The position numbers and the translations under genes were made by a program. The notes under the pieces are model-generated. The model did no database searches, was not told the DNA's origin, and saw only the letters and a program-made list of their open reading frames with translations. From NCBI GenBank assembly GCA_051599415.1, contig AP039692.1, positions 682,001-714,618 on the forward strand: DNA of 32,618 nucleotides. Direction: 5' to 3'. The DNA is from Savitreella phatthalungensis (taxonomy: Eukaryota). Of this stretch, positions 10,531-32,359 are shown piece after piece. Each line of letters opens with the position of its first letter. The first letter of the stretch is position 1.

Positions 10531-10621
10531 CGAGCCAGCATATGAACGTGCACGAGGATCAGAGTGTTAACTGTCTGGGAGGCTCATTATAATGCATGTG
10601 TAATTTATGTGATGATTATCA

Positions 10622-12829
10622 TTAATCTCGGTGAAAGTCGTCGAAGCGCTTGTTCGATTTCTTCTGCTGCTCGTACTCTTTCAGAAGCTTTTTTGCCATG
10701 CTCTTACTGATTTCTGAGCCCTCAAGATGGGTTGGAATACCACGTTGATCAAAGGAAGTATAGCGCGTGTCACCCCTGAACATCTCTTCGGCGCGTATTC
10801 GCCCCTTTTCCAGCGCAGCTGCTTCTCGCTCTTTCTGCGCAGCCTTCTTGGCGGCCTTGTCGCGCGCCTGTTGCTCTTTCTCCGCCTTCTTGGCGAGCAA
10901 AATTTCTGGCGAGCTCGCTTTTAAGATAAATCCATCCTTGCGATCGTCGAGAGCTATGCCCAGCTCCGGAAGAACGTCATCTCTGAATCGGTCGAGCTCG
11001 ACTAAGATGGGTCGATCGCCACGCGCCAAACTTGCTCTAAACGTCCTGAGGCTTTCATTGTCGAGTGACAGCCGATCGAGACCAGCCATGATTCCTGCAA
11101 TGTCTCGTCCCGCAGCCACACGCTCACGGATCTCCTGTCTGCACTCCGCAATCTGCCGTACCTCGTTCATCAATGCAGCGTCGACGTCAACTGGCCAACC
11201 ATATTCTCCGGCATCGTTGACTTCGACACCGAACACTCCGAGCAAGTCAGTCACAAAATGAGCGACGTCGCGCAAGGTTGCTGACGGCGCCACGTGATCG
11301 TGCGACATGTGCTTGTTTGACTCAGTTACGAGATCGCGCAAGAGCGTCATCGCTAATGGAGTATCGAAGTCGTCTGCAAGGGCAGCGTCCACATCATCAC
11401 GCGTCTGCTGAAGTCTCGAGGCTAGTGCATCGTTCCTCGTGTCTCCTTCGAGCTCCCGTACCTGGACGAAGAGTTCTTGCACTTTGGCTTCGAAATTACG
11501 CGCTGACTTCAACAAGTCGTCGCTGTAATCAACGCGACCACGCCATCTGCCACTGAGGAAAATGAAGCGGAGCAGTCGCGGGGAAATCTCCTCGAGGACT
11601 TGCTTGATCGTGATGAAGTTCTTCAAGCTCTTGCTCATTTTGAGCCCACGAATGTGCAAGTGACCAGTGTGCAGAAAGTAGCGCACCCAGTCATGGCATC
11701 CATGGTAGGCTTCAGACTGGGCGAGCTCATTATCGTGGTGCGGGAATGTCAGATCCTCACCACCACTGTGTATATCCATTTGTGGGCCAAAGACATCAGA
11801 GGCCATGACGGAGCATTCTATATGCCATCCGGGACGACCCTGTCCCCAGGGACTTGGCCAAGAGGGCTCGCCGACCTTGCTGGCTTTCCATAGAGCGAAG
11901 TCACGCTTGGAACGTTTCGCCTGAGCTATTGCCGCTGACAAAGAGCCCTCGGCTTCGTCCAGAAGAGCGTCTGCTGAAGTCGCCATGCTGGATGGTTTGA
12001 GTTTTGCGTATTCATGCCCGGCCGCAATGAAACGAGCGACATCAAAATACACACTCCCGCCGGTCTCGTACGCGAGGCCACTCACGACCAGACGATCGAC
12101 AAAGTCGACGATTTGCGGCATGTAATCCGTGACACGCGTGATCTGGTCTGGTGGCAGCACGCCGAGGCTGGCCATGTCCGCGTTGAAGTCTGCTTCCCAG
12201 AAGGTGGTCAGGGCCTTTGTAGCGTGCACAATCTCGTCGTTAGTAAGTTGCTGGTCAGGCGTATCGATTCCGGACACGATAATATCGCGAGCCGATGCAA
12301 TGTCAAAATCCTCGCTCGTCAAGCTCTGCGCAGCGGCAGATAAAGCTTCAATGTGCATGTAGTCCTTGGGATGTTGCAAGGGATCTCTGGCGGCAAGCGG
12401 ATTTGAAAGCCAAGTCTCGGGCGTTGCACCGCTTTCACCGAAATGGCGATCGATGTACTTGGCAAAGAGCTCTCGTACCTCTTCTCGACTCCCCCGATAC
12501 CGGTCGAACAGTAGTTGCTGACGCGCCTTGACGATAATTTTGTCGTCGACATCGGTCACATTTTGGACGTATCGGACTTGCAAACCGAAGTAGCCTTCGA
12601 GCAGACGACGCAGTATATCTGTCGTGACATAGTTCCGAGCGTGTCCTAAGTGCGATGCATCATATACAGTAGGGCCGCAAGAATACCAGTCTAGACGATC
12701 TTTGCCGTCGCGCAGGGTCAAGGGTCGGATCGATTTAGTGAGAGTGTCGTATACGTTCAGTTGCGCTGGCACGGTCACCTGCTGCCGGAGAGAATGTCGA
12801 GTCATCAGGGTGAGTGACCTACAGACCAT
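10622..12829 (-). CDS. CRS1: Cysteinyl-tRNA synthetase
   Basis: WYSCGPTVYDASHLGHARNY, GRPGWHIECS, FPHHDNE, KMSKS. Start uncertain: ATG 12829 (possibly followed by a 45-nt in-frame intron) or 12805. Confidence 0.95.
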   Translation of the reverse strand: MVCRSLTLMTRHSLRQQVTVPAQLNVYDTLTKSIRPLTLRDGKDRLDWYSCGPTVYDASHLGHARNYVTTDILRRLLEGYFGLQVRYVQNVTDVDDKIIVKARQQLLFDRYRGSREEVRELFAKYIDRHFGESGATPETWLSNPLAARDPLQHPKDYMHIEALSAAAQSLTSEDFDIASARDIIVSGIDTPDQQLTNDEIVHATKALTTFWEADFNADMASLGVLPPDQITRVTDYMPQIVDFVDRLVVSGLAYETGGSVYFDVARFIAAGHEYAKLKPSSMATSADALLDEAEGSLSAAIAQAKRSKRDFALWKASKVGEPSWPSPWGQGRPGWHIECSVMASDVFGPQMDIHSGGEDLTFPHHDNELAQSEAYHGCHDWVRYFLHTGHLHIRGLKMSKSLKNFITIKQVLEEISPRLLRFIFLSGRWRGRVDYSDDLLKSARNFEAKVQELFVQVRELEGDTRNDALASRLQQTRDDVDAALADDFDTPLAMTLLRDLVTESNKHMSHDHVAPSATLRDVAHFVTDLLGVFGVEVNDAGEYGWPVDVDAALMNEVRQIAECRQEIRERVAAGRDIAGIMAGLDRLSLDNESLRTFRASLARGDRPILVELDRFRDDVLPELGIALDDRKDGFILKASSPEILLAKKAEKEQQARDKAAKKAAQKEREAAALEKGRIRAEEMFRGDTRYTSFDQRGIPTHLEGSEISKSMAKKLLKEYEQQKKSNKRFDDFHRD

Positions 12830-12902
12830 GCAGATGCGCCGCCTTGCTGTTGTGCTTGCGAGGCTGTGCCTACGTATGTGCAGACGTACGCAGCTACAAA
12901 GT

Positions 12903-13829
12903 TCAGCTTTTATCCGTAACCGATAATAATGCTTTTGTCCAGTCAAATTTGTCCCACTTCCGTTTGAAGACGCGAACTTGCTCGTCGTAGTCACGCCACG
13001 GCTTTCGTCTCTTCCGCCAAACGGTCAGATCAATACGCATGGCTGTAGCTAGCACTTGTCTGGTCCACAGATCGTCTCTGGGCCAGCACTGTATGTTCTC
13101 GACCGGATGGCCGAGTCCGCCGTCCAGGTCAAACCAGATATGAATGTAAGGGACTTGGCTCGACATACGCTGGAAGAATGTGGTATCTCTCAGCGTATCA
13201 ATGATTTGTGCGTCGTCGGACTCAGCGGACAGCGCTTCGCGAAAGTAACGCGGCAAATGATCGAAGATGTGACATGGTACAGGCATGCATTCCATCACGC
13301 AGTGCTGTGCCTTGACAGCAGACTCCCAGAATACTGCCGAGCACTTCAAGGTAGCGAACATTCGCGTCAAGCTCTTCATATAATTGCGAATCTCCGTGCG
13401 CTCATCTGCGTCACAATCGAGAATGCTCGCGTGATGGTCGCGCGGCATGATCAGACAGTGGTAGCGATGTAGAGGAGCGCTCGAAACTGTCAGCGTGACT
13501 CTCGAGCCCGCCGCAAGAACCGGCGCAACACCGTCGCATAGGCCGCATTGCTGAATTTGGGGAGCCCGAATACGTTTGCCAAGGTCACCCAGGCGCTCGG
13601 CATTTTCGTCGAGATATTCGAGGTCGCTCCTAAACGCAGTGTCGCGTGCAATTTGCTTGGCAGCTGTTATAGCCGAAGACTCTTCGCGACTTGACGGAAG
13701 CTTGGGCGACTGCAGCCCGGCTTGTCTCCGGCGTTGGGCATGAGGGCCGCTTTGAGTCTCGCGGCCGTAAGTACTGCCCAGCAAGCGACTCCAAGCAATC
13801 TCGTCGTCCGCCCTTTGCCTCTTTGTCAT
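12903..13829 (-). CDS. cwf19: Cwf19/CWF19L2-like spliceosome disassembly factor (CwfJ domains), short form
   Basis: DLEYLDENAERL, CxxC (CGLC), HCLIMP..H, EIRNYMKSLTRMF, HCVMECMP, WDKFDWTKAL. Confidence 0.88.
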   Translation of the reverse strand: MTKRQRADDEIAWSRLLGSTYGRETQSGPHAQRRRQAGLQSPKLPSSREESSAITAAKQIARDTAFRSDLEYLDENAERLGDLGKRIRAPQIQQCGLCDGVAPVLAAGSRVTLTVSSAPLHRYHCLIMPRDHHASILDCDADERTEIRNYMKSLTRMFATLKCSAVFWESAVKAQHCVMECMPVPCHIFDHLPRYFREALSAESDDAQIIDTLRDTTFFQRMSSQVPYIHIWFDLDGGLGHPVENIQCWPRDDLWTRQVLATAMRIDLTVWRKRRKPWRDYDEQVRVFKRKWDKFDWTKALLSVTDKS

Positions 13830-17051: not shown

Positions 17052-18013
17052 TGGATCGATTCGTCAAAAGGTCGCCAAAGCCCGTCGTCTCTGACTATGA
17101 GCACCATTCTTCATATCCGTTCCCGCTACCCTCTAGGCTTCCTAAAAAGCTGGAACCTCCACGAGAGCCAGTGACCGTGGACGCGCCAGATTTGCTCAAA
17201 TTCTCGCCCTTCCTCGACAGCAGCAGTGCCAGACTGCTGTTTGACTTTCTCTGTGATACGATGCCGTGGTATCGAGTCGAATACGTTGTTCGCGGCATTC
17301 ATATTAGGACACCGCGTTTTACGACGGTGTTTGGTCTAGACGAATCACACAGTTGGCGCGATGGGGCTCCTTATCCTTCTGGTAAGCTGAAATGTAAGCC
17401 GCGCCCAATACCTGGTTGCTTGCGAGAGCTACAAACGCACGTCGAGCGCTACACTGCAGCAAACTATAATTTCTGCCTCGTCAACTTATACATTGATGGT
17501 CAAGACTCGATTTCGTACCATTCCGACGATGAGCACTTCCTGGGACCTAATCCTACGATAGCATCGTTGTCGCTTGGTGCGTCAAGGGATTTCAGCATGC
17601 GCCTGAAAGACAATCACAATGAACAGTGGAAGACAACGCTGCGTTCGGGCGATATGGTGGTCATGCGCGGTGATACCCAGCACCTCTGGGAACACTCAAT
17701 CCCGAAACGCAGATCTGCTGCCCCGCGCATCAACATTACGTTTCGTCGCGGTGTTGTACCGTATGCCACGGATAACTATAATCGATATAACATAGGTGAC
17801 GGACCATTCTTCAGATGGCGTGCAGGGAAAATGGTCCAAGGCGACGCGAAGCTGTCCGCCGAACCGATTATCCCCCAAGTAACACACGAGCCGTCCTTTG
17901 ATTTGGCCGAGGAAGTTGCTGCAATCGAAAAAGCAGTGACGAAGCGCGAAGTGGAGGACGTGGAAGAGGCTGTCAGGAAGCGTCAGCACAGACTCACACG
18001 AACAAATGAGTAA
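17051..18013 (+). CDS. AlkB-family 2OG-Fe(II) dioxygenase (ALKBH2/3-like)
   Basis: TPRFTTVFG, NFCLVNLYIDGQDSISYHSDDE (HxD), WEHSIPK, RINITFR. Confidence 0.92.
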   Translation: MDRFVKRSPKPVVSDYEHHSSYPFPLPSRLPKKLEPPREPVTVDAPDLLKFSPFLDSSSARLLFDFLCDTMPWYRVEYVVRGIHIRTPRFTTVFGLDESHSWRDGAPYPSGKLKCKPRPIPGCLRELQTHVERYTAANYNFCLVNLYIDGQDSISYHSDDEHFLGPNPTIASLSLGASRDFSMRLKDNHNEQWKTTLRSGDMVVMRGDTQHLWEHSIPKRRSAAPRINITFRRGVVPYATDNYNRYNIGDGPFFRWRAGKMVQGDAKLSAEPIIPQVTHEPSFDLAEEVAAIEKAVTKREVEDVEEAVRKRQHRLTRTNE

Positions 18014-18974: not shown

Positions 18975-19922
18975 ATGCCCGCAGCCGTACAAACGGCCTG
19001 GGAGGAGTCCTCCCAGCGACGCAGGTGGACATTCACTACTTCGGAGCTTCAACGGAAGAGAGAACATACTTACGCCAAGCTGAGTGAGGAGGTTCGGCAG
19101 CACCGCCGCCTGGAAAGTGATCTCGCAGGCGTCGAACTGGACGATGTTGAGCTTCCGTCCCTCAACGAGGAGCTCTGCTTGGTGAATCACTACGCCCGTA
19201 AGGTGGCAGACATAGCCAATGCATTCAACATGCCGTCACATGTTAAGTCGAGCGCAATGACATATCTCCGCCGGTTCTATCTAGACGCGACTGTCTTACA
19301 GCATCATCCACGCTCGATCGCTGTGACATGTTTGTGGCTAGCAACAAAGACTTGCGAATGGCATATCCCGCTTGACAAGTTTGTGGAGAAACTCCCAAAG
19401 ACCACGCGAGAAAGCGTGCTGGAGCACGAATATCTTGTCGCCAGCAGAATCGCATTCGATTTTGTGCACTGGTCACCGTTTCGAGCTCTATACGGACTAA
19501 CGCTCGAGCTCGGTGGCGCTAGAGAACAACGAGGACTCGCGCATGATCGGGCCAAGGCCATACTGGTCAACATACTTCCATCGGATCTGCTCTTTGTGCA
19601 CACACCGAGTGAACTCGCCCTCGCGGCGCTACACAAGGTCGAACCGTTACTCGTTGATTCCCTCATCAAGCGCCATAAACTCGACGCTGAGTCGATACTA
19701 GCGATCGACATGACAAATGTCAAGGATGTGGATGTTGAAGAGATCCGTGCGATTGACAAGAAGGTCTTCGAGGCACAAGACCCTCTCTATAGCCGCTCAG
19801 TCCTCACAAATATTCAGAAGCGCAAGTTGGACGAGGTTGAAGCTGCCGACATAGCACGTAGAAACGAGAAGCAGGCGCGTAGTGATGCCCATACCGCCCA
19901 GCTAGGTAAATTATTAGAATAG
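18975..19922 (+). CDS. CCL1: Cyclin H (TFIIH/CAK cyclin Ccl1/Mcs2)
   Basis: SSQRRRWTF, EELCLVNHY, SAMTYLRRFYL, HPRSIAVTCLWLATK, PFRALYG, PSELALAAL. Confidence 0.88.
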   Translation: MPAAVQTAWEESSQRRRWTFTTSELQRKREHTYAKLSEEVRQHRRLESDLAGVELDDVELPSLNEELCLVNHYARKVADIANAFNMPSHVKSSAMTYLRRFYLDATVLQHHPRSIAVTCLWLATKTCEWHIPLDKFVEKLPKTTRESVLEHEYLVASRIAFDFVHWSPFRALYGLTLELGGAREQRGLAHDRAKAILVNILPSDLLFVHTPSELALAALHKVEPLLVDSLIKRHKLDAESILAIDMTNVKDVDVEEIRAIDKKVFEAQDPLYSRSVLTNIQKRKLDEVEAADIARRNEKQARSDAHTAQLGKLLE

Positions 19923-19985
19923 CCGGAAACGATGCATGATAAATCTGATCCGAAACACAATTGAATCCGCATTGGTGTGACGACC

Positions 19986-20531
19986 ATGGATGCCGTTGTG
20001 CACGAGTACGCGGCGGTGGCAGCGGATCGCCTCGGCCAAGGAGACGACGATGGTCTTGATGAAATTCTGGACGAGCTTGACGAGCTTGACGACAGCGCCT
20101 ATCGCGCACAGCGTCTTCAGCAACTCAATGACGAGGTCAAGCACTTGAGGTCACTTTCTGAAGGGCACGGCACGGTCCAAACACTGGACGAGGAAGCTGT
20201 CATGGTGCTTTCGACAAAGTATCCGCGTGTCGTCGTACATTTTGCGCACCAAGACTTTGCGAAATGTCGTGTCATGGACAAGCATCTGGAAAAAATAGCC
20301 AAACGGTATCTCAAGGTGCGATTCGTCCGCATCGCTGCGGAGACTGCACCATTCCTCGTTGCAAGATTGAAGATCCAGGTGTTGCCATGTGTCATTCCTT
20401 TCGTTGATGGCCAAGCGCCCGGTAGAATTCTAGGCTTCGAAGGACTCGACTTGGTCGGAGAAGATGATTTCACTACAGCATCTCTAGAAGGGAGGCTATC
20501 GCAGTTTAACGTCATCCAGCAGAGGTTATGA
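19986..20531 (+). CDS. PLP1: Phosducin-like protein (Plp1/TXNDC9)
   Basis: Acidic N-terminus, YRAQRLQQL, VVVHFAHQDFAKCRVMDKHL, APFLVARLKIQVLPCV, GFEGL..DDFTT. ATG 19986 in ACCATGG context. Confidence 0.88.
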   Translation: MDAVVHEYAAVAADRLGQGDDDGLDEILDELDELDDSAYRAQRLQQLNDEVKHLRSLSEGHGTVQTLDEEAVMVLSTKYPRVVVHFAHQDFAKCRVMDKHLEKIAKRYLKVRFVRIAAETAPFLVARLKIQVLPCVIPFVDGQAPGRILGFEGLDLVGEDDFTTASLEGRLSQFNVIQQRL

Positions 20532-21095
20532 GTGGACTAGCACAGGTTGCATCGCCGAGCGATGTGCGTCCAGCCAGGCGAAATAGAAGAAATTGCTATT
20601 TCTTGGCGGACTCCCGTATCTCTGGGAGAGTCTCATTCGAGTGGCCCGCGGCAGCGTCGCGACCACTTCCGGCCATGCTCGTCTGAAAGTCTGCCAGGCA
20701 AGACACCACTCCCCCAAGGACGCCGTCCTGGGTTTCCATGACGTATGCCAGGTCCAGTCAATAAGACACATTGGCAATGGCTGTAGACGGACTGGTCTAC
20801 TTAAAGTGTCGTCATACCACAAAACATCTCGAAGGCTTGTGCAATGAATCCTTTGCATGCGTCCGATGGCCCGCTCGAGCAGTGTGCTGGGTGTCTCTGA
20901 CAATTGATCGTACCAGTGACGATCGAGCCACGCATCGTCGTCAATGGAGGCATTGTCCCGCAAGGCTAAGTGCTGTAGAAGTCGGGAGATATCGTTATCT
21001 CGATTGCGCGTTTTATGGCTTGGATCATCTGTCGACAGGTCCTGAAGGTCAGCGCAGACTTCCTCGTAGTCAGTGACGAACGTTCTTTTTCCCAT
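20526..21095 (-). CDS. Hypothetical Trp-rich protein (189 aa)
   Basis: ATG-initiated ORF that exactly fills the gap between TRM11 and PLP1; no recognisable motif. Confidence 0.55.
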   Translation of the reverse strand: MGKRTFVTDYEEVCADLQDLSTDDPSHKTRNRDNDISRLLQHLALRDNASIDDDAWLDRHWYDQLSETPSTLLERAIGRMQRIHCTSLRDVLWYDDTLSRPVRLQPLPMCLIDWTWHTSWKPRTASLGEWCLAWQTFRRAWPEVVATLPRATRMRLSQRYGSPPRNSNFFYFAWLDAHRSAMQPVLVHS

Positions 21096-21131
21096 GTCGT
21101 AGCGGGTGTCAATTTGGTCCTCTTCTCATGT

Positions 21132-22502
21132 TCATTTCCCGCGTAGGTCGCGCTCCGAGGCCCGTGCGAATCCTTTGAAGAACTTATCTCGAAAGTCGCG
21201 ATGTGCTGGCGTGTGATCAGAATCGGACACGACGGTCTGTGCGACGTCTAATGCATACTCCCTGCGGTACGTCAGAAGGCGCCGGCCCCAAGAGCCAAAG
21301 TGCTGCACGGAGTTGTACAGATTTCGCATGCCTGCAATCTGCGGGATGTCCACATCCTTGTACTCGTCCGTGACTGTGGGTAACCAGAAGGTCAGGCGGC
21401 CGCCATCGACCAGCATAGCTCGACTATCACGTAGTAAGTCCTCTACGAGCTCAGACAGCTCATAACCTTTCCGCGGAGGTACGTAGTCCGGCTGATCATG
21501 TACAAATCGACCATCTTTGAGCTGACCTGGTTTGTCGCGACCGAACAGAGGATCTGTCGTCTCCCTACCGAGCGTTCTTGCGCCAGCTCGGACACCGTAC
21601 GGCGGATCACTCACCACGCTGTCGACCTTGAAGCTGGGACGCAACGGAGAGTGTTTTACATCGAACACGATGCAATCCATAAGTAGCTGGAGCATATTAT
21701 ACTGTCGGAAACTGCCAGGCAAGTCCGGCAGGCTGCCCTCTTTATGCAGCGCTTTCTTGCGCGACGAGTAAGCAGTCCGGCCATTTGGAGAAGGCGTGCC
21801 ACGAATCATACGGCCATCAATATCGCTTCCTAGCGTGGTAGCCCCAAAAGCACTGCACGTCAATAGGAATGACCCTGTGCCGCAGAAAGGGTCGTAGCAG
21901 AGGGCTCCGGGACGAGCCAACGCCATATTGGCCGTCAACAAGGACACTCGCGACTCCATCGATGTGTTCCCAAGGTATTCGCGCTTCTTCAAAGAGAATC
22001 GATCGACCAGATGTCTGGCACTGTGCCCAACAAGTCTAGTGAACAAGATAGATGCGTTTTCCGAACGGCGATCGATCAAGGTCCAAGTCGTTTGTGGACA
22101 TTTGAGATCGACTGAGCCCTTGAAGTCCAGGTGTTGAAGATCTTCAATCACCTGGCGGACCTCGTCCCGGTCGCTGTGCTTGCCGACGCCTGTAGTTTCC
22201 ACTTGGAACTTGTAAGAGTCATGCGCGAACTCGGTGAAGGGATATTCGGGGCATTGCTTTACCTCAGCATCCAGCGCCTCCCAATCTCTGCCCTGCGCGT
22301 ATACTCGGAACACACCTTTGCAGATGATGCTACGCGACACCACCTGTCGTGCCTGATTGTCATCCTGGACTTGAAACAGTACTAGCTCGTCTTCTTCGGC
22401 AACGAAGCGAATCTCGCACGACGCAAGCTCCGCAAGGGATGAGAGCTCAGGTATGCGGAAGGATTGGAAAGAACGAGGATACCATGCAGCGTAGTCAAGC
22501 AT
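21132..22502 (-). CDS. TRM11: tRNA (guanine-10-N2) methyltransferase Trm11
   Basis: SFRIPEL, LKKREYLGNTSM, YDPFCGTGS, GSDIDGR, DPPYGVRAG. Confidence 0.95.
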   Translation of the reverse strand: MLDYAAWYPRSFQSFRIPELSSLAELASCEIRFVAEEDELVLFQVQDDNQARQVVSRSIICKGVFRVYAQGRDWEALDAEVKQCPEYPFTEFAHDSYKFQVETTGVGKHSDRDEVRQVIEDLQHLDFKGSVDLKCPQTTWTLIDRRSENASILFTRLVGHSARHLVDRFSLKKREYLGNTSMESRVSLLTANMALARPGALCYDPFCGTGSFLLTCSAFGATTLGSDIDGRMIRGTPSPNGRTAYSSRKKALHKEGSLPDLPGSFRQYNMLQLLMDCIVFDVKHSPLRPSFKVDSVVSDPPYGVRAGARTLGRETTDPLFGRDKPGQLKDGRFVHDQPDYVPPRKGYELSELVEDLLRDSRAMLVDGGRLTFWLPTVTDEYKDVDIPQIAGMRNLYNSVQHFGSWGRRLLTYRREYALDVAQTVVSDSDHTPAHRDFRDKFFKGFARASERDLRGK

Positions 22503-22537
22503 GACTGCACACCAATTTCAGAATGACCTATTTTTAG

Positions 22538-24358
22538 CTACTGAGTTTCCATTATCTTTCGTCGTTCGCCTTGAAGTGTGCGTTGGGTTTCGAGGAATTT
22601 ACCCAGAGGCGTATCTTCTCGAGCGAGCTCAAGCTGTCGCTGCTTCGGCCAGTCTATTTGCTTGCGCCGATGCTCTACGAGCTGCGCATTCGCCTGCAAG
22701 CGATCGAGCAGCGCAGAGATCCGCCGAGCTAGCTTCGCATCAGAGCACCTTCGTACATATCGCTTGAGTTGAATACTTACCGGAACGCAGAGTTCTGGAA
22801 AAGCAATCGAAGAGGCGTGAATAGCAAAGAACTCCGTCAGCAGATCACAAGTTGTCTCGCCAAGCTGTTCGTGATACGTCGAAGTGCGAAGAAGTTCCTG
22901 CTTTGCTCGGACACTGGTTTCCATTGACATCGGCTTTATGGTCGAAGGTTTCGGCTTCCTCCGCATTTCTGCGGAATCTAGGACGTCCCAAAGCAATCCG
23001 GCGAGCGGTACGAAGACATCGCATGCCTCGGACAATCGCAGCAGCGATCTGACCAAGGCAAATCGCATGGGGAAGTTCTGTGGCGACGTGACCGTGCGTG
23101 CAGCTCCGAGAGCCACCTGCACAAGCGGGTATATAAGTGAGTCTAAGTTGGTCGCAGGATGACGAGCAAGCACAGTACACCAGAAGTCGATGCTCTGACA
23201 GAACTGCTGTGAAGAAATTGTCCTTCTCGCTTCTTCTGTCTTGTCGTTGACGGCTTTGCGGAGGACAATGGCTAGTTGTCTGATGAAGTTGAAAGCGAGC
23301 GCGTACGAATCCTGCACGTCCACGCCGTAAAGCTCCGCGGCACTGTTTTTCATCAAGGTGATATTGCCTATCGTCAGAGTGGAGACTGCACGAGCCTCTC
23401 GGACGAAAGTGGTATAGAGCTCGCGCAGCACAAGCTGACGAAGGGCTGAATCCGTCATGGCAAACTGGCGCGCGACGAGAATAGCGCTGACCCTAGTCGA
23501 GCCCTCTGGAGACGAGGACCAAATCCGTACGGTCGACCGCACGAGGTCACGACACAGCCGACGATTGCTGAGCGTGTACGGTACCAAGTCTGTCAAGCTG
23601 TCGAGCACTTGTCTCTGCATGGCTGAGTCGCTCAGATCATCGAGCAGATGCAACAGACTGCTCAAAAAGGTTTTGATTGTCGGGGTCAATTTGCTAAGAC
23701 GCTTTGACTCTTGTGGCGGCCTGACGCGTTCAGCTCCTTCTCTGGCCGGGACGACGCGGCGAAGAAACTTGGGAACTCCATTAACTGCCAGCGTCACAAT
23801 CTTCTGCAACACCTCCGGGCTCTCGTCAACCTCTGCATTCGTCACAGCATTCTTGAAAGCCGTGACGAGTCGCTGGAAGCCCTTTGTAGTATCATTGGCT
23901 AGCGACTCGGCCATCTGGTCCACCTGCGCCAGAGAGATAATCGTTGCAGGTGACTCGTCAGGAATGTCTTCGTCAGCTGCGATTTCATCCTCGTCATCGT
24001 CTCCGAAGTTGAGCAGCTCTGCATCGTTTTCCTCCAGATACTTATAGAATTCAGGATCCTTGGCCTTCAGGCCTGCGAGATCTGCAGCATGTTCTTCAAT
24101 GGCATCGCCATCTGATTCGGAAGCTTCGCTGTCTTCATCCTTGTCGCCCTGTGCCAGGGAGCCGCCAGCAAGGAAGTCATCCATGGTCATGTTCTCGATC
24201 ACGTCTTCATTGTCGGGCTTTGTAGAGGCCGTCCTCTCCCCAATCACCGACCTGTGCTTCTTGCCTCGCTGTTCAGCTCTGTGCACCTTACGTCGCTTGA
24301 TAACGCCATCCAGATGTTTCTTCTGGAACTTCTTCGTGGTCTTTGACGGCTTCGCCAT
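22538..24358 (-). CDS. NOC2: Nucleolar complex protein Noc2
   Basis: MAKPSKTTKKFQKKHL, LKAKDPEFYKYLEEND..LLNF, LMKNSAAEL, AFNFIRQLAI.LR, LIYPLVQV, IAFPEL. Confidence 0.94.
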   Translation of the reverse strand: MAKPSKTTKKFQKKHLDGVIKRRKVHRAEQRGKKHRSVIGERTASTKPDNEDVIENMTMDDFLAGGSLAQGDKDEDSEASESDGDAIEEHAADLAGLKAKDPEFYKYLEENDAELLNFGDDDEDEIAADEDIPDESPATIISLAQVDQMAESLANDTTKGFQRLVTAFKNAVTNAEVDESPEVLQKIVTLAVNGVPKFLRRVVPAREGAERVRPPQESKRLSKLTPTIKTFLSSLLHLLDDLSDSAMQRQVLDSLTDLVPYTLSNRRLCRDLVRSTVRIWSSSPEGSTRVSAILVARQFAMTDSALRQLVLRELYTTFVREARAVSTLTIGNITLMKNSAAELYGVDVQDSYALAFNFIRQLAIVLRKAVNDKTEEARRTISSQQFCQSIDFWCTVLARHPATNLDSLIYPLVQVALGAARTVTSPQNFPMRFALVRSLLRLSEACDVFVPLAGLLWDVLDSAEMRRKPKPSTIKPMSMETSVRAKQELLRTSTYHEQLGETTCDLLTEFFAIHASSIAFPELCVPVSIQLKRYVRRCSDAKLARRISALLDRLQANAQLVEHRRKQIDWPKQRQLELAREDTPLGKFLETQRTLQGERRKIMETQ

Positions 24359-24498: not shown

Positions 24499-24886
24499 AT
24501 GTCGCTTGGGATCCCGCTCAAATTGCTCCAGGAGAGCATTGGACATGTAGTCACTGTCGAGCTCGATAGCGGTAAGTATTGACAGCCTGCAACATGAATG
24601 AGACTGACGTGCAGGGGCAATGTATCGCGGCACACTTGACACGGCAGAGGATAACATGAACATACAGATGCGCGACATCACTGTCACGGCCCGCGAGGGT
24701 AGAGTCAGCCATGTTGACAAGATTTATGTGCGCGGCTCTCACATCCGCTTCTTCGTCGTTCCAGATATGCTAAAACATGCCCCGATGTTCAAGAACTTCG
24801 AGATCGGCCAGCAGCGCAAAAGCGCAGCATCCAAGCCAGCGCGTAATCTCGTGGAAAAGGGCCGAGGCACGGCCTTGCGTCACTAG
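24499..24886 (+). CDS. SMD3: Small nuclear ribonucleoprotein Sm D3; exons 24499-24571 and 24615-24886
   Basis: [25 protein letters not shown] joins [34 protein letters not shown] through a 43-nt intron, GTAAGT...ACTGAC..GCAG (24572-24614); 114 aa. Confidence 0.95.
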
Positions 24887-25229
24887 CTGAACGTAATTGT
24901 ACCTGATACACTTGACTTCGCGGCTTGACCGATCTGCACCCTGCCGCCATTTCAATGGTCGAGCTTGTGCTCTCGCCCGTGCACATCGACAATGGTAGAC
25001 CGGACGGATACATATTTTTGGCACCCACCTCTGCGCGTGCATGCATGATAATTATAATTTAATTGTTTGCGACCTCTGCATCCATAATTCCCATTACTTC
25101 CATGCTGTCACACTGTACTCAGTATTTTTCAGATCACATTTACCGTGGCTCGAATAGACACGGAGTGCTGCGTATAAGCGCTACAGGCACAGAAACGCAC
25201 CTCACGCTTCGACAAGAGTTGCTTTTACG

Positions 25230-26219
25230 ATGTCGACGTCTGCCGACTATTATTTTGACAGCTATGCACATTTTGGCATCCATGAAGAGATGTTGAAGGA
25301 CTCTGTCCGGACCAATAGTTACATGAATGCTATCAAGCAGAACAAGCATGTCTTCAAGGACAAGATTGTGCTCGACGTCGGATGCGGCACCGGGATTCTT
25401 AGCATGTTCTGCGCTCAGGCTGGAGCAAAGCACGTCTACGGTGTCGACATGAGTAATATAATCCTCAAGGCTCGCGAAATTGTCAAGATCAATCACCTGG
25501 ATGACAAGGTCACGCTGTTGCAAGGGAAAATGGAGGAAATCGAGCTGCCAGTAGAGAAGGTCGACATCATTGTCAGCGAGTGGATGGGCTATTTCCTGCT
25601 ATACGAATCAATGCTTGACACGGTCCTCTACGCGCGCGATCGGTATCTCGTCCCGGGTGGCAAGATTTTCCCTGATGTTGCCATTATGTATGTGGCCGGT
25701 ATCGAAGACGGTGATTATTACGACGAAAAGATAAACTACTGGGACAATGTTTACGGCTTCGATTATTCCCCTATCAAGGAGGTGGCCGTCAGAGAGCCTT
25801 TGGTGGACATGGTCGAATTCAAAGCCGTCATGACTGATCCTTGCGAACTCTTCCGGATCGATATCACCACGGTCACAAAGGAGCAGCTATCGTTTAGCGC
25901 AGACTTTGCTATTCGTGCTCGGCGGCAAGACTACTGCCATGCTCTCATTTCCTGGTTCGACATCGAATTCAATGCCTGCCACAAGCCAGTGAAGTTCTCC
26001 ACCGGCCCACAGGCTCAGTACACTCACTGGAAGCAGACCGTGTTTTACATTGGTCAGGCGCTGACAATGAATGCTGGCGAACTAGTGAAGGGCCATTTGC
26101 GATGTGCGCCCAACGACAAGAACCCGCGCGACCTCGATATTCATGTCGATTATGCGTTTGAACCCCAGCAGCAGAAGCACCGAACGGTCCGGGTATCCAA
26201 GGACTACCGCATGTGCTAG
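25230..26219 (+). CDS. HMT1: Type I protein arginine methyltransferase PRMT1
   Basis: DYYFDSYAHFGIHEEMLKD, VLDVGCGTGIL, SEWMGYFLLYESM, THWKQ. Confidence 0.96.
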   Translation: MSTSADYYFDSYAHFGIHEEMLKDSVRTNSYMNAIKQNKHVFKDKIVLDVGCGTGILSMFCAQAGAKHVYGVDMSNIILKAREIVKINHLDDKVTLLQGKMEEIELPVEKVDIIVSEWMGYFLLYESMLDTVLYARDRYLVPGGKIFPDVAIMYVAGIEDGDYYDEKINYWDNVYGFDYSPIKEVAVREPLVDMVEFKAVMTDPCELFRIDITTVTKEQLSFSADFAIRARRQDYCHALISWFDIEFNACHKPVKFSTGPQAQYTHWKQTVFYIGQALTMNAGELVKGHLRCAPNDKNPRDLDIHVDYAFEPQQQKHRTVRVSKDYRMC

Positions 26220-26402
26220 TCGCAGCATTACTCGCCCAAGGGCGTGATATCAATTGTAGTCAATTGTACATTAAATTTTCATGTGGGGCCGCGATAAGGA
26301 TCTTCCCGTGCCAGGCTTTTAGGCTGCTTCCCTTCACGGCGTTCGGGCTTAGCGTGGCTTGTCCGCGCAGCATTTCGATACCGTCCAATCTGCCTGATAG
26401 CC

Positions 26403-26672
26403 ATGTCACTTAACGTCGTCCTTGCGCAGCAGGTTGGCCCGGAGATCGCCTCGCTCGACAGGCTCTACGATTCTCAGAGCGCATTGCGAGCCGAGATCGC
26501 TAGATTCCGAGAAACGCTCGAGAGGTACGCGACAGACAGTGAGCCGGCAGCCTTGTCGGCCACGGCGCAAAGGCTCAAGCAGACCTCAAGGGCGCTCCTC
26601 AAGATACGCGGTCAGCTCAAAGCTATTGAGGCTAGACTAGTGGTACTCTTACGCGATGAAGATCGATCGTGA
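26403..26672 (+). CDS. 89-aa coiled-coil protein, Snapin/Snn1 (BLOC-1 subunit)-like
   Basis: [24 protein letters not shown] and [23 protein letters not shown] fit the Snapin/Pallidin two-helix pattern; overlaps the urease ATG by 17 nt. Family call is tentative. Confidence 0.6.
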
Positions 26673-28386
26673 GGAGTATGCGGCGCTCTATGGGCCTACC
26701 GCGGGCGACCGCGTCAGGCTAGCCGACACGAATCTCATCATTGAAGTCGAGCACGACATGACGACCTATGGTGACGAGCTCTCCTTCGGCGGCGGTAAAG
26801 TGCTGCGAGATGGCATGGGCCAGGCCAGCTCGCGGCTTGACGGGGAGACGCTTGACCTCGTTCTGACAAACTGCCTCATCGTTGACTATACGGGAATTTA
26901 CAAGGCCGACATTGGTGTCAAAGAGGGCATTATCGTTGGCATCGGCAAGGCAGGAAATCCGGATATCATGGATAACATCACTCACGGTATGGTCGTCGGA
27001 AGTCAGACCGAGGTCATCGCCGGGGAGCACAGGATTGTGACGACCGGCGGACTCGACACTCACATCCACTTCATCTGCCCACAGCAAGCTCAGGAGGCAC
27101 TTGCATCGGGAATCACTACTCATCTAGGGGGTGGGACTGGGCCAGCTCAGGGTACAAACGCGACGACGTGCACGCCTGGCGAATTTTATATTCATCGAAT
27201 GCTGCAAGCGATCGACACTGTTCCCCTCAATTATGGCGTCACCGGTAAGGGAAATGACGCCGGACAGGAAGGCCTCCGAGAGCAGATCCGCGCGGGTGCG
27301 GTTGGTCTTAAGCTCCACGAAGACTGGGGATGCACGCCTGCGGCCATCGACAGCTGTTTGAAAGTATGCGACGAAATGGACGTTCAATGCCTGATCCATA
27401 CAGACACGCTGAACGAGAGCGGCTTCGTTCAGCAAACGGTCGGTGCCTTCAAGAATCGCACGATTCACGCATATCATTCCGAGGGAGCTGGCGGTGGTCA
27501 TGCACCGGACATCATGTGCATCTGCGGACAGCTTGCGGACAACAGTCTCAGGACGGAGAACGTGCTGCCGTCTTCGACAAATCCGACCCGCCCATACACA
27601 TCCAACACCCTCGACGAGCATCTTGACATGCTCATGGTGTGCCACCATTTGAACAAGAACATCCCAGAAGATGTGGCATTCGCAGAGTCACGCATCCGTG
27701 CGGAGACCATCGCAGCGGAGGACATTCTTCACGATACGGGCGCGATTTCGATGATGTCAAGCGATTCTCAGGCGATGGGTCGATGCGGCGAGGTCATTCT
27801 GCGAACGTGGAAGACGGCTCACAAGAACAAGCATCAGCGCGGCCCACTGCCAGAAGACGCAAATACTGGCAACGACAATTTCAGGGTCAAGCGATATATC
27901 TCGAAATATACAATCAATCCGGCGATCGCTCAGGGCATGTCACATCTTCTCGGTAGTCTCGAGGTCGGCAAGCTCGCTGACATCTGCCTCTGGCGTCCGG
28001 ACAGATTCGGAAGTAAGCCAAGCATTGTTGTTAAAGGCGGTCACATCGCCTTTGCTGAGATGGGCGACGCAAACGCTAGCATTCCGACAGTTGAGCCCGT
28101 CATTGGCCGGGCAATGTGGCAGCCTCTGAGACCAGGCCACAGCTCCATCACCTTCCTCTCGCAAGCAGCGATCGATGCGGGCGTACACAAGCAATTGGGC
28201 CTTCAGAAGCGCGTGTCGCCTGTGAAAAACTGTCGCAACATCGGTAAGAAGGATATGATCTTCAATGACGCACGTCCTGTGATTGAGATCGACCCGGAAT
28301 CTTACCGCGTCGAAGCTGACGGCGTGCATTTGACTTGCGAGCCAATGTCAAGTCTGCCGCTGACAGCTGGCCATTACATTTTCTAG
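26656..28386 (+). CDS. Urease, catalytic alpha (UreC-equivalent) chain only
   Basis: 576 aa starting [22 protein letters not shown]. All Ni-site motifs present: [31 protein letters not shown], flap [13 protein letters not shown]. Confidence 0.96.
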
Positions 28387-28617
28387 ATTTAGCCCACCCG
28401 CCGCTTCCGCAGAGACGGCTCCGTAGGTCGTTCCAGATTTGACGTAAAATCGTGGATGGAATTTGAGTTTTTGATCTACCGACAGGAAGTCGTCATCTAT
28501 AAGATGGCGTCCAATCAGCTTGCTTGTCTAAAATGTAAAACCGACCGGTACGCAAACCGATATAAGGCTAATGAAGTCGGTCGTGTGCAGAACTTTGTGC
28601 CGTACTTTCGCGACACC

Positions 28618-29949
28618 ATGGCCATGAACGACCCGCAGACATGGTCATTTCGGAAGAAATGGGGTCAGACGTTGTTGCTGACTCTCATGACTCTCAATGT
28701 CCAGATTGCCGGATCGATCTTCGCGCCTGCTATGCGGCCTATAGAAGCGGAATTTGGTGTTGCGCAGGAGGTTGTCGTGCTCGGCATCACGCTGACGTTA
28801 CTTGGCTTTGCGTTCGCACCCATGGTGCTCGCACCCCTGGCAGAGTCCGTCGGCAGACTCCCGATTTACTGGGGAGGTTATCTGCTGTTTCTCCTGTTCT
28901 CCATCGCAGTCGCAGATGCCCCCAATGTCGTCGTTCTTCTCGTTTTTCGCTTTCTTATTGGAGTCGCCGGAGCTCCATGTAACACCATGATCGCTGGCAG
29001 CATAACTGACATGTTCCCGACTGACAGCCTTGGCCCACCGATGTCGGTCTTCATCTTGGTCGGTCTACTCCTTCCTGTTCCTCTTGGTCCTCTCATCGGC
29101 GGTTTCATTCTTCAGCGCTTCAGCTGGCGTTACGTCTTCTGGTGGCCGCTCGTCCCGGCGGCAGCAATGTTCATCCTGCTGTTTTTGCCATTCATGTGCG
29201 AGACTCGCATGCATAAGCACTCCCCGAAACTCACGACTGTAACGCTGCCGTGGAAGATGCTCGCTGGAGACATCGTGGTCGCATCTTTCTCTTTGTGGCT
29301 CGCATTCAGTTGGGGTGTTACTTATGGGCTGCTCGAGTCCGTGGATGAGGTCTTCAGAACGCTGTATGGCTTCGATGTCGACGGCGTCGGTTGCGTCTAC
29401 ATTGGTCTCATCATTGCGGTATTCGTCGGTTGGCCGGCTGCCGTTTTCGGCGAGGCAATATGGCGTCGACCGCGCCCGCAACCATGTAAGGATGATCGGG
29501 CTGAATCTCCGTCGCGTAGCAGCTGCAGTCAATCGGACTGCCCGCCGCCCGAAAGACGCTTGATTCTCGCTTGCATTGGAGCGCCGATGGTACCAGCGGG
29601 CCTCTTCACTTATGGCTGGACGTCCTATAGATCAGTCAGCTTCTATGCACCAATCTTTGGTGTCGGCCTTACCTTCTTTGGCATCTTCACAATATACTAC
29701 AGCGTCTTCCTCTATCTCTCTACGGGATATTCTTCGAACGCGGCATCAGCGCTCTCAGCCGCAGGCTTTTGGCGAAATATTTTCGCAGCTGCGTTCCCAC
29801 TCTTCACTAGACAGATGTACCAGAGGTTGACTTACCACTGGGCATCGTCTCTGCTTGGCTTTGTGGCCCTCGCGCTTGGCATCATTCCAGTCGCCCTTCT
29901 TTCTTGGGGTCATTATTTACGAGCACGCAGCAAGTTCATCGAGGCATGA
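28618..29949 (+). CDS. MFS drug:H+ antiporter (DHA1 family)
   Basis: DPQTWSFRKKW, APLAESVGRLPIY, GPLIGGFI, WRYVFW, PPERRL, AASALSA, ~12 TMs. Likely start at 28618 (ACCATGG); ORF is open from 28456. Confidence 0.92.
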   Translation: MAMNDPQTWSFRKKWGQTLLLTLMTLNVQIAGSIFAPAMRPIEAEFGVAQEVVVLGITLTLLGFAFAPMVLAPLAESVGRLPIYWGGYLLFLLFSIAVADAPNVVVLLVFRFLIGVAGAPCNTMIAGSITDMFPTDSLGPPMSVFILVGLLLPVPLGPLIGGFILQRFSWRYVFWWPLVPAAAMFILLFLPFMCETRMHKHSPKLTTVTLPWKMLAGDIVVASFSLWLAFSWGVTYGLLESVDEVFRTLYGFDVDGVGCVYIGLIIAVFVGWPAAVFGEAIWRRPRPQPCKDDRAESPSRSSCSQSDCPPPERRLILACIGAPMVPAGLFTYGWTSYRSVSFYAPIFGVGLTFFGIFTIYYSVFLYLSTGYSSNAASALSAAGFWRNIFAAAFPLFTRQMYQRLTYHWASSLLGFVALALGIIPVALLSWGHYLRARSKFIEA

Positions 29950-30091
29950 TATTGATGAAGGAGGTTATTAGCATTCATGTCATTCAGACATCTGTAAATT
30001 TATGTCTGCCGGTTTTGCCGAGCGTCGCAAGTGGTGTAATTGTATTCCGTTCAACACTGCATGGCATCACTGTAAGTCAACAGTTAGGGAC

Positions 30092-30264
30092 AAACCAAAC
30101 TGTAAAACCAAATTGTGAGACCAAACTGTAAAACCAAACGGTGAAACTATATTGCGAGAACCAAACTGCAAAACCAGACTGCAAGAACCAAACTGCAAAA
30201 CCAAACTGCAAGACCAGACTGTGAAAACCAAACAGCAAAAACCAAACTGCAAAAACCAGACTGC
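30092..30264. repeat. Degenerate 11-13 nt tandem repeat (AAAACCAAACTG-like)
   Basis: Repeated aaaccaaactgt / aaccaaactgc / accagactg units. Confidence 0.85.
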
Positions 30265-30312
30265 ATCCAGAAATGCAGCGCTCCACAAATTTGAACCTAA
30301 CTGCATCATGAA

Positions 30313-30391
30313 CTCTGCATTCCCTGCATTCCCTGCATTCCCTGCATTCCCTGCATTCCCTGCATTCTCTGCATTCCCTGCATTCTCTGCA
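30313..30391. repeat. 9-mer minisatellite (CCCTGCATT)n, about 9 copies
   Basis: Directly visible ccctgcatt/ctctgcatt units. Confidence 0.92.
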
Positions 30392-30523
30392 AGGTATCTG
30401 AATGAGAAAGAATTTGGCAAAACCCCCTGTATCAGAGCCATATTCTGACTTTGTGTATGGAGGGAAAGCCCCTGAGAATGGTCTTGCTCCCTGATTGCCC
30501 AGAGCTTATTGGCAGTTAATTGT

Positions 30524-30607
30524 TGCTCCAAGCAGGATTTGAACCCAAGACCTCAAACCCAAAGTTCAAATTCTGCCAGACCAGCATCTACCCTCCATGC
30601 ACAAAGC
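30524..30607 (-). pseudogene. Decayed tRNA-like / Pol III B-box element
   Basis: Minus strand reads GCTTTGT GCATGGAGGGTAGATGC ... AGGTCTTGGGTTCAAATCCTGCTTGGAGCA: acceptor-like ends, D-like hairpin and a GGTTCRAATCC B-box. The anticodon arm is unresolved. Confidence 0.4.
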
Positions 30608-30970
30608 TTGTGACTCAGTAGCTTGGTGGGGGCCAGACCACCGTGCCAGGAGACCAAGGGCCTTGCGTTGTCAGCACGTGGCAAACACAGTATATAAACC
30701 CAATCTAACTCAGACAATGAAAAACCATTGTACATGTGAAATGTTTTTTATAGAGTTGATCAATGGCGTCATGATGAGACTAGTCTCGTGATCATCCGAC
30801 ATCTGGATCAGAAGATATGTCCAATTACAGTGGACAAAATGAGAGAATGATGTCATGTTGCGCACACATAGTGGGCAAGATAAGATGAGATATATAGTGT
30901 AGAAGCCTGTAGCCTCTAACACATCACACCAATCAACATAAGCGCCAGCCAGGCGCTACAATGCTGGCCT

Positions 30971-31231
30971 CCAGCAGCCGCAGCAGCAGCACAGCACAGC
31001 ACAGCAGCAGCAGCAGCAGCAGCAGCGGCAGCAGCAGTGGCAGCAGCAGTGGCAGCAGCAGTGGCAGCAGTAGGAACAGCAGTAGGAACAGCAGCAGTAA
31101 TGAATGCAGCAGTAATGAATGCAGCAGTAGTAACGGCAGCAGCAGTGAATGCAGCAGTTGCTGTAGTAGTGGCAGTATTAGAAGGAGTGAAGGGAATGTC
31201 AGATGTAGTCAGTGTGGTAGCAGCAGCAGCC
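30971..31231. repeat. CAG/GCA-rich low-complexity microsatellite
   Basis: Runs of cagcagcag with gcagcagtg and gcagtaatgaat variants. Confidence 0.88.
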
Positions 31232-32359
31232 ATCACAGTCTATAAAGCACAGACTAAATAATTGAATGAGGCATACAAGGAGCACAGACAGGCACAGACA
31301 CAACATAGTGGACAGATTACAGCGCATGACAGTGGCAAGTACATGCGACAGTGCACAAGACAGTCAAGAGGAGCAAGTGAGAGCGAGTAAGTTGTGGAGG
31401 AAAGGGCACAGCACAGCGCAAGCAATGGATTTGACAAGCAACAGTTGAGGGAACAGTGCATGCCATGTGACAATGGAGTCAATCACAGTCAATTGATGTT
31501 GCACAACAGGCGCCAGGGCCAATTGCAGTCAAAGGAATGAGAATGCAGGCAACAGAGTAGGGTCAGAGCCAAGTAAGTGGTGTTTATAACAAGCAGAGAC
31601 AGAGTCAGTGGCAGGGCCAGGTGACAAATGACAGTGACAAGTGACAGTGCAGTTTGAACAGATGACAGCAATCAGCCAATGGCAGTGCAGTAATGAAACA
31701 AGGTACAGTGCGGGCAACAAGTGTGTGATACACAACCAGGGTTGACAGGTCAACAGCAATTGGCCGATCCAGGGTTTGACAAATGCCAGGCCACAGAGCA
31801 GGGCAATGAGGCAAGTAGTAGCGCAGGTGATGGTATTTGAGAGATGATGACATGAGTGAGAGTGCAGATAACACCGGGTGACAGATGATGGTGCAGGCAA
31901 CAGCACATGGCAGACAATGGTGCAGATAACAGGATTTGAAGGAGACCAGGCAGGTAACAACATTTGACAGAGACAGGGACAGGGCAGGTGACAGCATGTG
32001 AGGGTTGCAGATGAAACAGATGGCAGGGTTTTTAAGGGTAGGAATGTGGGGAGCAAATGGCATGGGATGATTCAGGTAAACGGTAAATAGGAGGAAGAGT
32101 GTCAGATGGATCAGGGATTGAGAGCAGGAGTACGGCAGAGAGAGGAGCAGCAAAGAGGAGCAGCAAGGAGACAGCAAGATGATCATAATGTTGAAGACCA
32201 GCAGGCGCGTATGCGTGCGGACAGGTGTAGTGCAGCAAGGCAGCAAGTGGGAGCAAAGAAACAAGGTTAGCAAGCGAGTGAGCAAGCAAGCGAGCGAGCA
32301 AGCAAGCAAAGCGGAGCAACGGTTGGGGCATTGGTTAGTTTGACGGCGGTTAGTTTTTG

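Follow-up and report, generated by a model that had tools for sequence, protein, structure and literature searches.

A Snapin-like reading frame overlapping the start of an alpha-only urease gene in Savitreella phatthalungensis: overlapping transcripts or a candidate bicistronic mRNA

The overlapping gene pair and its surroundings

The window, by which we mean the whole stretch of 32,618 nt that was analysed, comes from Savitreella phatthalungensis PYCC 9005, the type strain of this species of the Taphrinales. On its plus strand, a PRMT1-like type I protein arginine methyltransferase of 329 aa (25230-26219), recognized by its methyltransferase domains and a PRMT_C match with an E-value of 2e-62, is followed by a spacer of 183 nt between the PRMT stop and the next ATG (26220-26402). 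The spacer is the sole non-coding DNA upstream of the gene pair studied here. It contains an AT-richer patch (26230-26319, GC 0.42-0.45) and two HGATAR motifs, at 26292 and 26395, compared to about 0.39 expected from the window density of 2.15 per kb, which is weak evidence. The pair itself consists of a Snapin/Pallidin-like ORF of 89 aa (26403-26672), found in the ORF list as an unspliced frame with no internal ATG in any frame, and the ORF of the urease alpha (catalytic) subunit, which is 576 aa long (26656-28386). An MFS transporter (28456-29949, plus strand) follows, its first in-frame ATG lying 69 nt past the urease stop.

The two ORFs of the pair lie on one strand and in different frames. 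The earlier note on this DNA had claimed that the Snapin-like ORF ends 17 nt inside the urease CDS, and the same overlap (26656-26672) was recovered from the ORF coordinates. It comprises the first six urease codons on one side and the last five Snapin codons plus the stop on the other. Overlap of coding sequences on the same strand is rare in fungi. The junction is covered by one contig of run X1 (25000-29000) and one of run X2 (26311-28062) with no differences; both runs were made from one sample, perhaps the very source of the DNA analysed, and they are not independent support. As far as can be seen, the overlap junction is no assembly artefact. Two environmental runs, X3 and X7, contain low-depth pieces with about 97-99% identity to 25159-26226, 26954-27146 and 28414-29000, and X3 has a further 38-nt match of lower identity. 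None of the X3 or X7 pieces among the matches listed covers the Snapin ORF, and a look for RNA runs containing 25000-29000 listed none.

The description of the small ORF as Snapin-like, also made in the earlier note, is sustained by a Pfam Snapin_Pallidin match, by a relative that exceeds the family cut-off and by the nearest clusters of the ESM Atlas. The note had proposed a profile search as a check. When this was run, Snapin_Pallidin (PF14712) matched the 89-aa ORF with an E-value of 1.5e-6 and 28.9 bits, which is 0.7 bits below Pfam's own curated threshold of 29.6, and residues 16-80 of the ORF aligned with profile positions 20-86 of 89. A HMMER search of 1.84 billion representatives with the ORF returned five matches. 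One was NCBI's 66-aa model of this gene, three were long coiled-coil or TPR proteins, and the only small match besides the model was P0244 (85 aa, E 8.3e-4). P0244 is 34% identical to the ORF over 77 aa in an alignment that runs nearly end to end, and it passes the Snapin_Pallidin cut-off itself, with 31.5 bits on PF14712. The C-terminal tail of the Snapin ORF is about six residues longer than that of P0244, and the overlap with urease encodes exactly that tail. A word-indexed search with the ORF gave NCBI's 66-aa model as its sole match. The top three ESM Atlas clusters for the ORF (scores 0.92, 0.90 and 0.88; lengths 97, 98 and 94 aa) are Snapin/Pallidin clusters in which 88%, 45% and 79% of the members carry PF14712, and 212 of 256 features are held in common by the ORF and the first of them.

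A Pfam score just under the curated cut-off and a single small relative among 1.84 billion representatives, with the other matches long coiled-coil or TPR proteins, would fit an 89-codon ORF that belongs to the urease mRNA, as a long upstream ORF or leader, and resembles Snapin by coiled-coil composition only; however, the match spans most of the profile, P0244 aligns end to end and is itself above the cut-off, and the top three Atlas clusters are Snapin/Pallidin families of 94-98 aa, which makes a spurious ORF very improbable. From these comparisons, the 89-codon ORF is credible as a Snapin/Pallidin-family gene.

NCBI's model of the small ORF, P0001 ('hypothetical protein PYCC9005_001757 [Savitreella phatthalungensis]', 66 aa), is different. 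Comparison of the model with the ORF shows that it implies an 'intron' of 26 nt (26525-26550, plus strand), so that it matches the ORF over residues 1-40/45 only and then continues in another frame. P0001 has no Snapin match in Pfam, whereas the match of the unspliced ORF to the profile extends to residue 80. No CTRAC branch site was read in the 26-nt segment. A clear intron of the window, the 43-nt intron of SmD3 (24572-24614), has GTAAGT, a CTGAC branch site and CAG. Finally, the spliced model stops before the urease ATG, as would be expected from a predictor that forbids CDS overlap. Because of the Pfam match of the unspliced ORF, the lack of a Snapin match in P0001, the form of the SmD3 intron and the spliced end before the urease ATG, the 26-nt intron is probably a predictor artefact that avoids the CDS overlap, and the 66-aa model is probably wrong. 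Predictors that forbid overlapping CDSs will mis-model such loci.

A urease encoded in two unlinked genes

The urease ORF was assigned through its Pfam Urease_alpha and Amidohydro_1 domains. Residues 1-121 cover 121 of 121 positions of the Urease_alpha profile (PF00449, E 1.7e-55), and the ORF begins exactly at the start of this N-terminal domain profile; Amidohydro_1 (PF01979) matches with an E-value of 3e-74. The translation contains SSDSQAMGR and other urease motifs, which we take to be active-site motifs. A sole Rfam match, 5_ureB_sRNA (antisense, 26803-27096, 98.4 bits), was rejected as an sRNA gene and read as conserved urease coding sequence. This bacterial Rfam family is built from urease coding sequence.

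The usual description of a eukaryotic urease is that of a single chain. The window ORF shares about 70% identity with residues 271-838 of the fused fungal ureases (about 835 aa), and when the fused urease of Saitoella complicata, P0048 (838 aa), was used in a tblastn search, only residues 271-838 were found in the 32.6-kb window. A TAG stop in the urease frame, read from the sequence five codons before the ATG (26638-26640, plus strand), means that only splicing could extend the alpha ORF upstream, and the distance from the PRMT stop to the urease ATG is only 436 nt. The tblastn search, the in-frame TAG and the 436-nt space show that no gamma or beta domain precedes alpha in this gene. An in-frame splice fusion of Snapin to urease was also considered, joining the GT at 26525 to the AG at 26639-26640, the only AG after the in-frame TAG. 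It was rejected since the frames do not match; this check was made by eye for the one 5' site at 26525.

The gamma and beta domains are encoded elsewhere. Residues 1-268 of P0048 were used as the gamma-beta query against shorter proteins, and three gamma-beta-only proteins of the Taphrinales were among the matches listed. The one from this organism, P0138 ('Urease [Savitreella phatthalungensis]'), is 260 aa long and has PF00547 and PF00699, thus gamma-beta only. It lies on a contig of 401,449 bp, and the proteins of the window lie on one of 714,618 bp. The other two are P0126 (260 aa) from Taphrina deformans PYCC 5710 and P0128 (259 aa) from Protomyces lactucae-debilis. Their C-termini fall within a few residues of one another, at a place that corresponds to the beta-alpha linker of the fused enzyme. 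The earlier note had observed that gamma-beta is absent from the locus and had placed the Snapin-like ORF in the position where it would normally be encoded. The first part stands; the Snapin ORF as a stand-in does not, since the gamma-beta gene is on another contig. Gamma-beta is relocated and not replaced by the Snapin ORF.

The origin of the two genes was examined in two quick trees. The gamma-beta tree had 39 rows, made of 27 of the 120 listed gamma-beta matches and 12 of the 120 listed alpha matches. The three Taphrinales rows and four further gamma-beta-only rows formed one group (SH-aLRT 96), which nests in the fungal group (98) with the basidiomycetes and seven named bacterial rows outside. 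In the alpha tree (27 rows), the window alpha groups with P0027, P0036 and P0100 (99), inside the eukaryote-type group. These three proteins share with the window alpha an insertion after the GGGHAPD motif; in the window alpha it is about nine residues longer than in Saitoella P0048 by our own count, and P0027, P0036 and P0100 have still longer insertions at the same place. The placement in both trees argues for secondary fission in the Taphrinales rather than bacterial import. On this phylogenetic reading, the Taphrinales split the fused fungal urease by secondary gene fission into an unlinked gamma-beta chain of about 260 aa and an alpha chain of 576 aa. The alpha-only gene is seen directly in Savitreella only, and Taphrina and Protomyces are known from their gamma-beta halves. 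Whatever the transcript structure discussed below, the lineage of Savitreella, Taphrina and Protomyces encodes gamma-beta apart from alpha. No paper describing a split urease in the Taphrinales was found in a full-text literature search, and a review of Taphrina deformans mentions urease once, merely as a gene present in the genome.

Three further alpha-only proteins, P0004, P0049 and P0097, were considered as additional splits and rejected, because they nest beside the fused ureases of Pezizomycotina and are probably exon-sized ORF calls. Metagenome loci were also compared. No match to the Snapin ORF was found by tblastn in the 80 metagenome loci matched by P0027, a set that excludes P0027's own 16.7-kb contig. 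One of the loci, L001 (67% identity), has gamma-beta directly upstream and is a fused-type gene.

Plate tests do not agree with this gene content. The available part of the species description scores S. phatthalungensis as urease-negative (PMC8877625), and in the available part of a second paper the sister genus Srisukozyma is urease-negative and new Taphrina species are positive (PMC13531029). The gamma-beta gene P0138 also looks intact. The two-gene urease of the type strain, which looks intact from its sequence, is at odds with the negative plate test, and this mismatch is a puzzle.

Transcript structure at the overlap

The earlier note had also claimed that no ATG lies between the Snapin and urease starts, and this was borne out. 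The next plus-strand ATG after that at 26403 is the one at 26656, and the 252 nt from 26404 to 26655 contain none in any frame, compared to 3.0 expected from the local base composition or 4.5 from the window-wide density. Gaps of at least 253 nt between ATGs are no rarity in the window, making up 7 of 596 on the plus strand and 7 of 629 on the minus strand. A codon-aware null was also calculated. The Met frequency of 2.25% in the 19 other ORFs of the window gives a probability of 0.148 for no internal Met in 84 residues. Synonymous resampling (20,000 draws with the protein fixed and the last eight codons held) gave a mean of 1.46 out-of-frame ATGs and a probability of 0.136 for none. Taken together, these values give a joint probability of about 0.02 for the ATG-free stretch. 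A comparison of 20 putative gene starts across the window places the urease start first, with 253 nt free of ATG upstream, ahead of four others with ATG-free leaders of 241, 223, 211 and 187 nt. The depletion of ATG is real yet modest: it is moderately unusual, and it was spotted in hindsight.

The window is compact throughout. Distances between tandem neighbours, measured from a stop codon to the next gene's first in-frame ATG and thus minimum values, are 35, 36, 63, 69, 73 and 91 nt; the shortest distance is that from Noc2 to a Trm11-like gene. Two convergent gene pairs overlap at their 3' ends. The upstream members of some tandem pairs are long and rich in ATG, such as Noc2 (618 aa) and CysRS (735 aa). 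Genes behind such ORFs are unreachable by leaky scanning and must begin their transcripts within or beside the upstream gene, which has to be routine in this genome. At the CysRS start, 211 nt are ATG-free and the spacer is just 73 nt, so its leader reaches into the upstream coding sequence. Poly(A)-signal hexamers are nearly absent after all 20 ORFs of the window, and their absence after the Snapin stop is uninformative.

By analogy with these compact tandem genes, a urease start inside the Snapin ORF would be the ordinary expectation. Our preferred reading, held tentatively, is that the principal mRNA of urease-alpha begins within the Snapin ORF and forms an overlapping but separate transcription unit. 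With its AUG inside the Snapin ORF, alpha lacks a spacer of its own, and its promoter and leader have to be located in or before the Snapin gene. The cap site of urease-alpha would be inside the Snapin ORF, as for the other tight tandem genes of the window, the AUG-free Snapin coding sequence would serve as the urease leader, and Snapin's own mRNA would continue into the urease gene. An internal urease start also requires an ATG-free leader, so the ATG-free run fits either this reading or a bicistronic one.

Several observations speak for separate transcription units. Other starts in the window have long ATG-free leaders, and a contrast of a weak AUG followed by a strong one is not seen. The Snapin and urease AUGs both have G at -3, with T and A, respectively, at +4; the -3 base at 18 other starts of the window, which are unverified, is A in nine cases, G in five, T in three and C in one. 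Against separate units, the ATG-free run has exactly the Snapin AUG at one end and the urease AUG at the other, and none of the other 20 starts examined has one as long. A start about 60-100 nt before the urease AUG would leave 150-190 nt needlessly ATG-free, for which we estimate a chance of about 0.05-0.1. A composition scan found no TATA-like or AT-rich patch within the Snapin ORF, where the GC content is mostly 0.53-0.63, with a drop to 0.45 confined to the final 60-nt segment (26620-26679); the AT-richer patch at 26230-26319 precedes the Snapin AUG. In addition, the urease-negative score would fit a poorly translated second cistron.

Another explanation, the one put forward in the earlier note, is that one capped mRNA from upstream of 26403 carries both ORFs and that the urease AUG is reached by leaky scanning over 253 nt, with most 40S subunits initiating at the Snapin AUG and a fraction scanning past. 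From the sequence features, this bicistronic reading is plausible, but it is not the front-runner. The absence of any ATG between the two starts, at about 0.02 under the codon-aware null, argues for it, although the locus was chosen in hindsight because this stretch has no ATG, four other genes of the window likewise follow ATG-free runs of 187-241 nt, and Snapin-family proteins are Met-poor anyway, P0244 having no internal Met either. Since the ORFs overlap, neither a terminator nor a promoter fits between them, and the only AT-richer non-coding DNA precedes the Snapin AUG. ORF1 is short, at 89 codons. Against the bicistron, AUG1 has the same G at -3 as AUG2, so that by the 18 unverified starts ORF1 is not marked as weaker than ORF2. 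RNA folding of 26340-26700 gave a z-score of -0.10 compared to shuffles, with no sign of an IRES-like fold, which also counts against the bicistron. The urease fission also bears on this reading, since a promoterless alpha fragment would need a borrowed promoter, and a low output of the second cistron would fit a urease-negative organism with intact genes. Separate transcripts and a leaky-scanning bicistron are not exclusive, and isoforms of both kinds may coexist.

In a stronger form of this explanation, the alpha fragment left without a promoter by the fission would have been captured behind the Met-free Snapin gene and would be made only by leaky scanning, its low yield accounting for the urease-negative score. 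We consider this unlikely, without dismissing it. If this promoter capture were true, it would be a natural case, in an ascomycete, of bicistronic translation rescuing a product of gene fission.

A further reading, an improbable one, takes the alpha ORF for a remnant with little or no expression, in a species that lost its urease function so recently that the ORF is still intact. The negative scores of Savitreella and Srisukozyma, set beside the positive ones of new Taphrina species in the available parts of the two papers (PMC8877625, PMC13531029), would fit such a loss, as would an alpha gene with no upstream DNA of its own. However, all 576 of its 576 codons are open, and the gamma-beta gene is intact too. 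In a 120-row alignment, alpha deviates at 16 columns that are at least 97% conserved among the 119 other ureases. The highest number in a fused urease is 8, and the related alpha-only proteins P0027, P0036 and P0100 have 12-19 such deviations; many of the 16 are common to this alpha-only group and conservative. The end branch of alpha in the 27-row tree (0.39) is close to that of P0027 (0.35). Going by its codons, conserved columns and branch length, the alpha gene gives no sign of decay. Low or repressed urease activity can also escape a plate test on Christensen agar. Termination followed by reinitiation, with back-scanning over 14 nt after the 89-codon ORF, would be unlikely.

Comparison with known systems

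The closest reference for the urease is the fused enzyme of Saitoella complicata, P0048, to whose alpha part the Savitreella protein is 70% identical over its whole length. Unlike P0048, the Savitreella gene is without residues 1-270, which hold gamma, beta and the linker. In the arrangement of its chains, the Taphrinales enzyme instead resembles the two-chain urease of Helicobacter, in which UreA is gamma-beta and UreB is alpha: gamma and beta are in one chain of about 240-260 aa and alpha is separate. Unlike the Helicobacter type, the Taphrinales genes are of fungal descent, through secondary fission of a fused eukaryotic gene, and unlike the genes of the Helicobacter operon, gamma-beta and alpha of Savitreella are on different contigs.

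For the overlapping pair, three systems are informative. According to the available part of a budding yeast study, bicistronic RNAs coexist with monocistronic ones and seem to be mainly translation modulators, the second gene being translated less (PMC8573964). The likeness lies in a compact genome with tandem genes sharing transcripts, which in Savitreella is a candidate case. The CDS overlap and AUG depletion are features of Savitreella and are not described for the budding yeast set in that part of the study (PMC8573964).

In the green algae Chlamydomonas and Auxenochlorella, as given in the available text of PMC11291117, fewer start codons than expected precede ORF2, the ORFs are very closely spaced, and at some bicistronic loci the stop and start codons overlap. 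The same text reports weak Kozak-like sequences at ORF1, short 5' UTRs and cross-species conservation for the algal sets (PMC11291117). Few start codons before ORF2, very short inter-ORF spacing and overlapping ORFs are shared with Savitreella. The contrast of a weak ORF1 and a strong ORF2 in the algal sets is not seen in this ascomycete yeast, as judged against a consensus from 18 unverified starts.

The dicistronic mRNAs of Drosophila Snapin and stoned are a further parallel. In the available parts of PMC2978622 and PMC11291117, their upstream ORFs are without in-frame internal AUGs and their downstream ORFs are translated by leaky scanning; experiments established that one transcript is made and that both of its ORFs are translated, and AUG1 is off consensus. 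Unlike these loci, the Savitreella pair is known from DNA, has the same -3 base at both AUGs and has a 17-nt ORF overlap. It is like them in its AUG-free ORF1, the unrelated second ORF on the same strand and the tight spacing. That one of the two Drosophila loci is also named Snapin is a curious coincidence. If the Savitreella pair were truly bicistronic, it would show how a promoterless fission product can stay expressed, and the AUG-depleted leaky-scanning bicistrons of flies and green algae would gain a counterpart in an ascomycete yeast.

Division of the urease into separate genes

Judged by the sequences compared here, the fused fungal urease is divided into separate genes in the Taphrinales. 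Genes for gamma-beta, the part of the urease that remains beside the catalytic alpha subunit, encode proteins of 259-260 aa in Savitreella (P0138), Taphrina deformans (P0126) and Protomyces lactucae-debilis (P0128). The Savitreella alpha gene (26656-28386, + strand) is separate from, and unlinked to, the gamma-beta gene, and both halves fall within the fungal clade in our trees. A literature search found no published description of a split urease in the Taphrinales.

The alpha protein carries an insertion immediately C-terminal of the GGGHAPD motif, at residues about 289-298 (window positions about 27520-27550). By a count from the sequences, this stretch is about nine residues longer than its counterpart in P0048, the fused Saitoella urease. 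Longer insertions were found at the same site in P0027, P0036 and P0100, three alpha-only proteins that group with the window alpha, and the insertion was absent from the fused ureases inspected by eye. The insertion may mark the split-urease lineage. The urease coding sequence also gave an antisense Rfam match, 5_ureB_sRNA (RF02514), at 26803-27096 on the - strand (98.4 bits, E 4.6e-26). This match is most likely due to the conserved coding sequence on which the bacterial antisense family is founded, rather than to an sRNA gene.

The Snapin gene model and its upstream spacer

The NCBI model of the Snapin gene (26403-26672, + strand), a spliced version of 66 aa (P0001), contains a 26-nt intron at 26525-26550 that abolishes the Snapin match. 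This intron is probably an artefact of prohibiting overlap between coding sequences. A useful local standard for genuine introns is the 43-nt intron at 24572-24614 in the SmD3-like gene, which carries GTAAGT, CAG and a CTGAC branch site. In the 183-nt spacer 5' of the Snapin ATG, two HGATAR (GATA-factor-type) motifs were found, at 26292 and 26395, compared to about 0.39 expected. This statistically weak excess might point to nitrogen control of anything that begins in the spacer.

Gene packing and environmental relatives

Gene packing in the window is extreme. Tandem genes lie 35-91 nt apart when the distance is taken between the stop of one gene and the earliest in-frame ATG of the next (spacers at 10530-10622, 12829-12903, 19922-19986, 21095-21132, 22502-22538 and 28386-28456). 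Overlaps of 20 nt (17994-18013) and 6 nt (20526-20531) occur in two pairs of convergent ORFs. In the Savitreella genome, transcription units that overlap must be common. The stretch at 30067-32343 is of low complexity, with overlapping ORFs on both strands and abundant Ala/Thr, Ser/Gly and GNA-type repeats.

Contigs from X3 and X7, environmental sequencing runs of other studies, include low-depth fragments matching 25159-26226, 26954-27146 and 28414-29000. Because these fragments differ at just 1-5 positions each, they suggest that the X3 and X7 samples contain close relatives of the Savitreella yeast. None of the X3 and X7 pieces listed covers the Snapin ORF.

Urease genes and the urease phenotype

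In Savitreella, the ORFs for alpha and gamma-beta both appear intact and conservatively evolving, despite the description of the type strain, PYCC 9005, as urease-negative in PMC8877625. In PMC13531029, the sister genus Srisukozyma is likewise described as urease-negative and new Taphrina species as positive. Candidate causes of the negative phenotype are expression, accessory genes and nickel supply.
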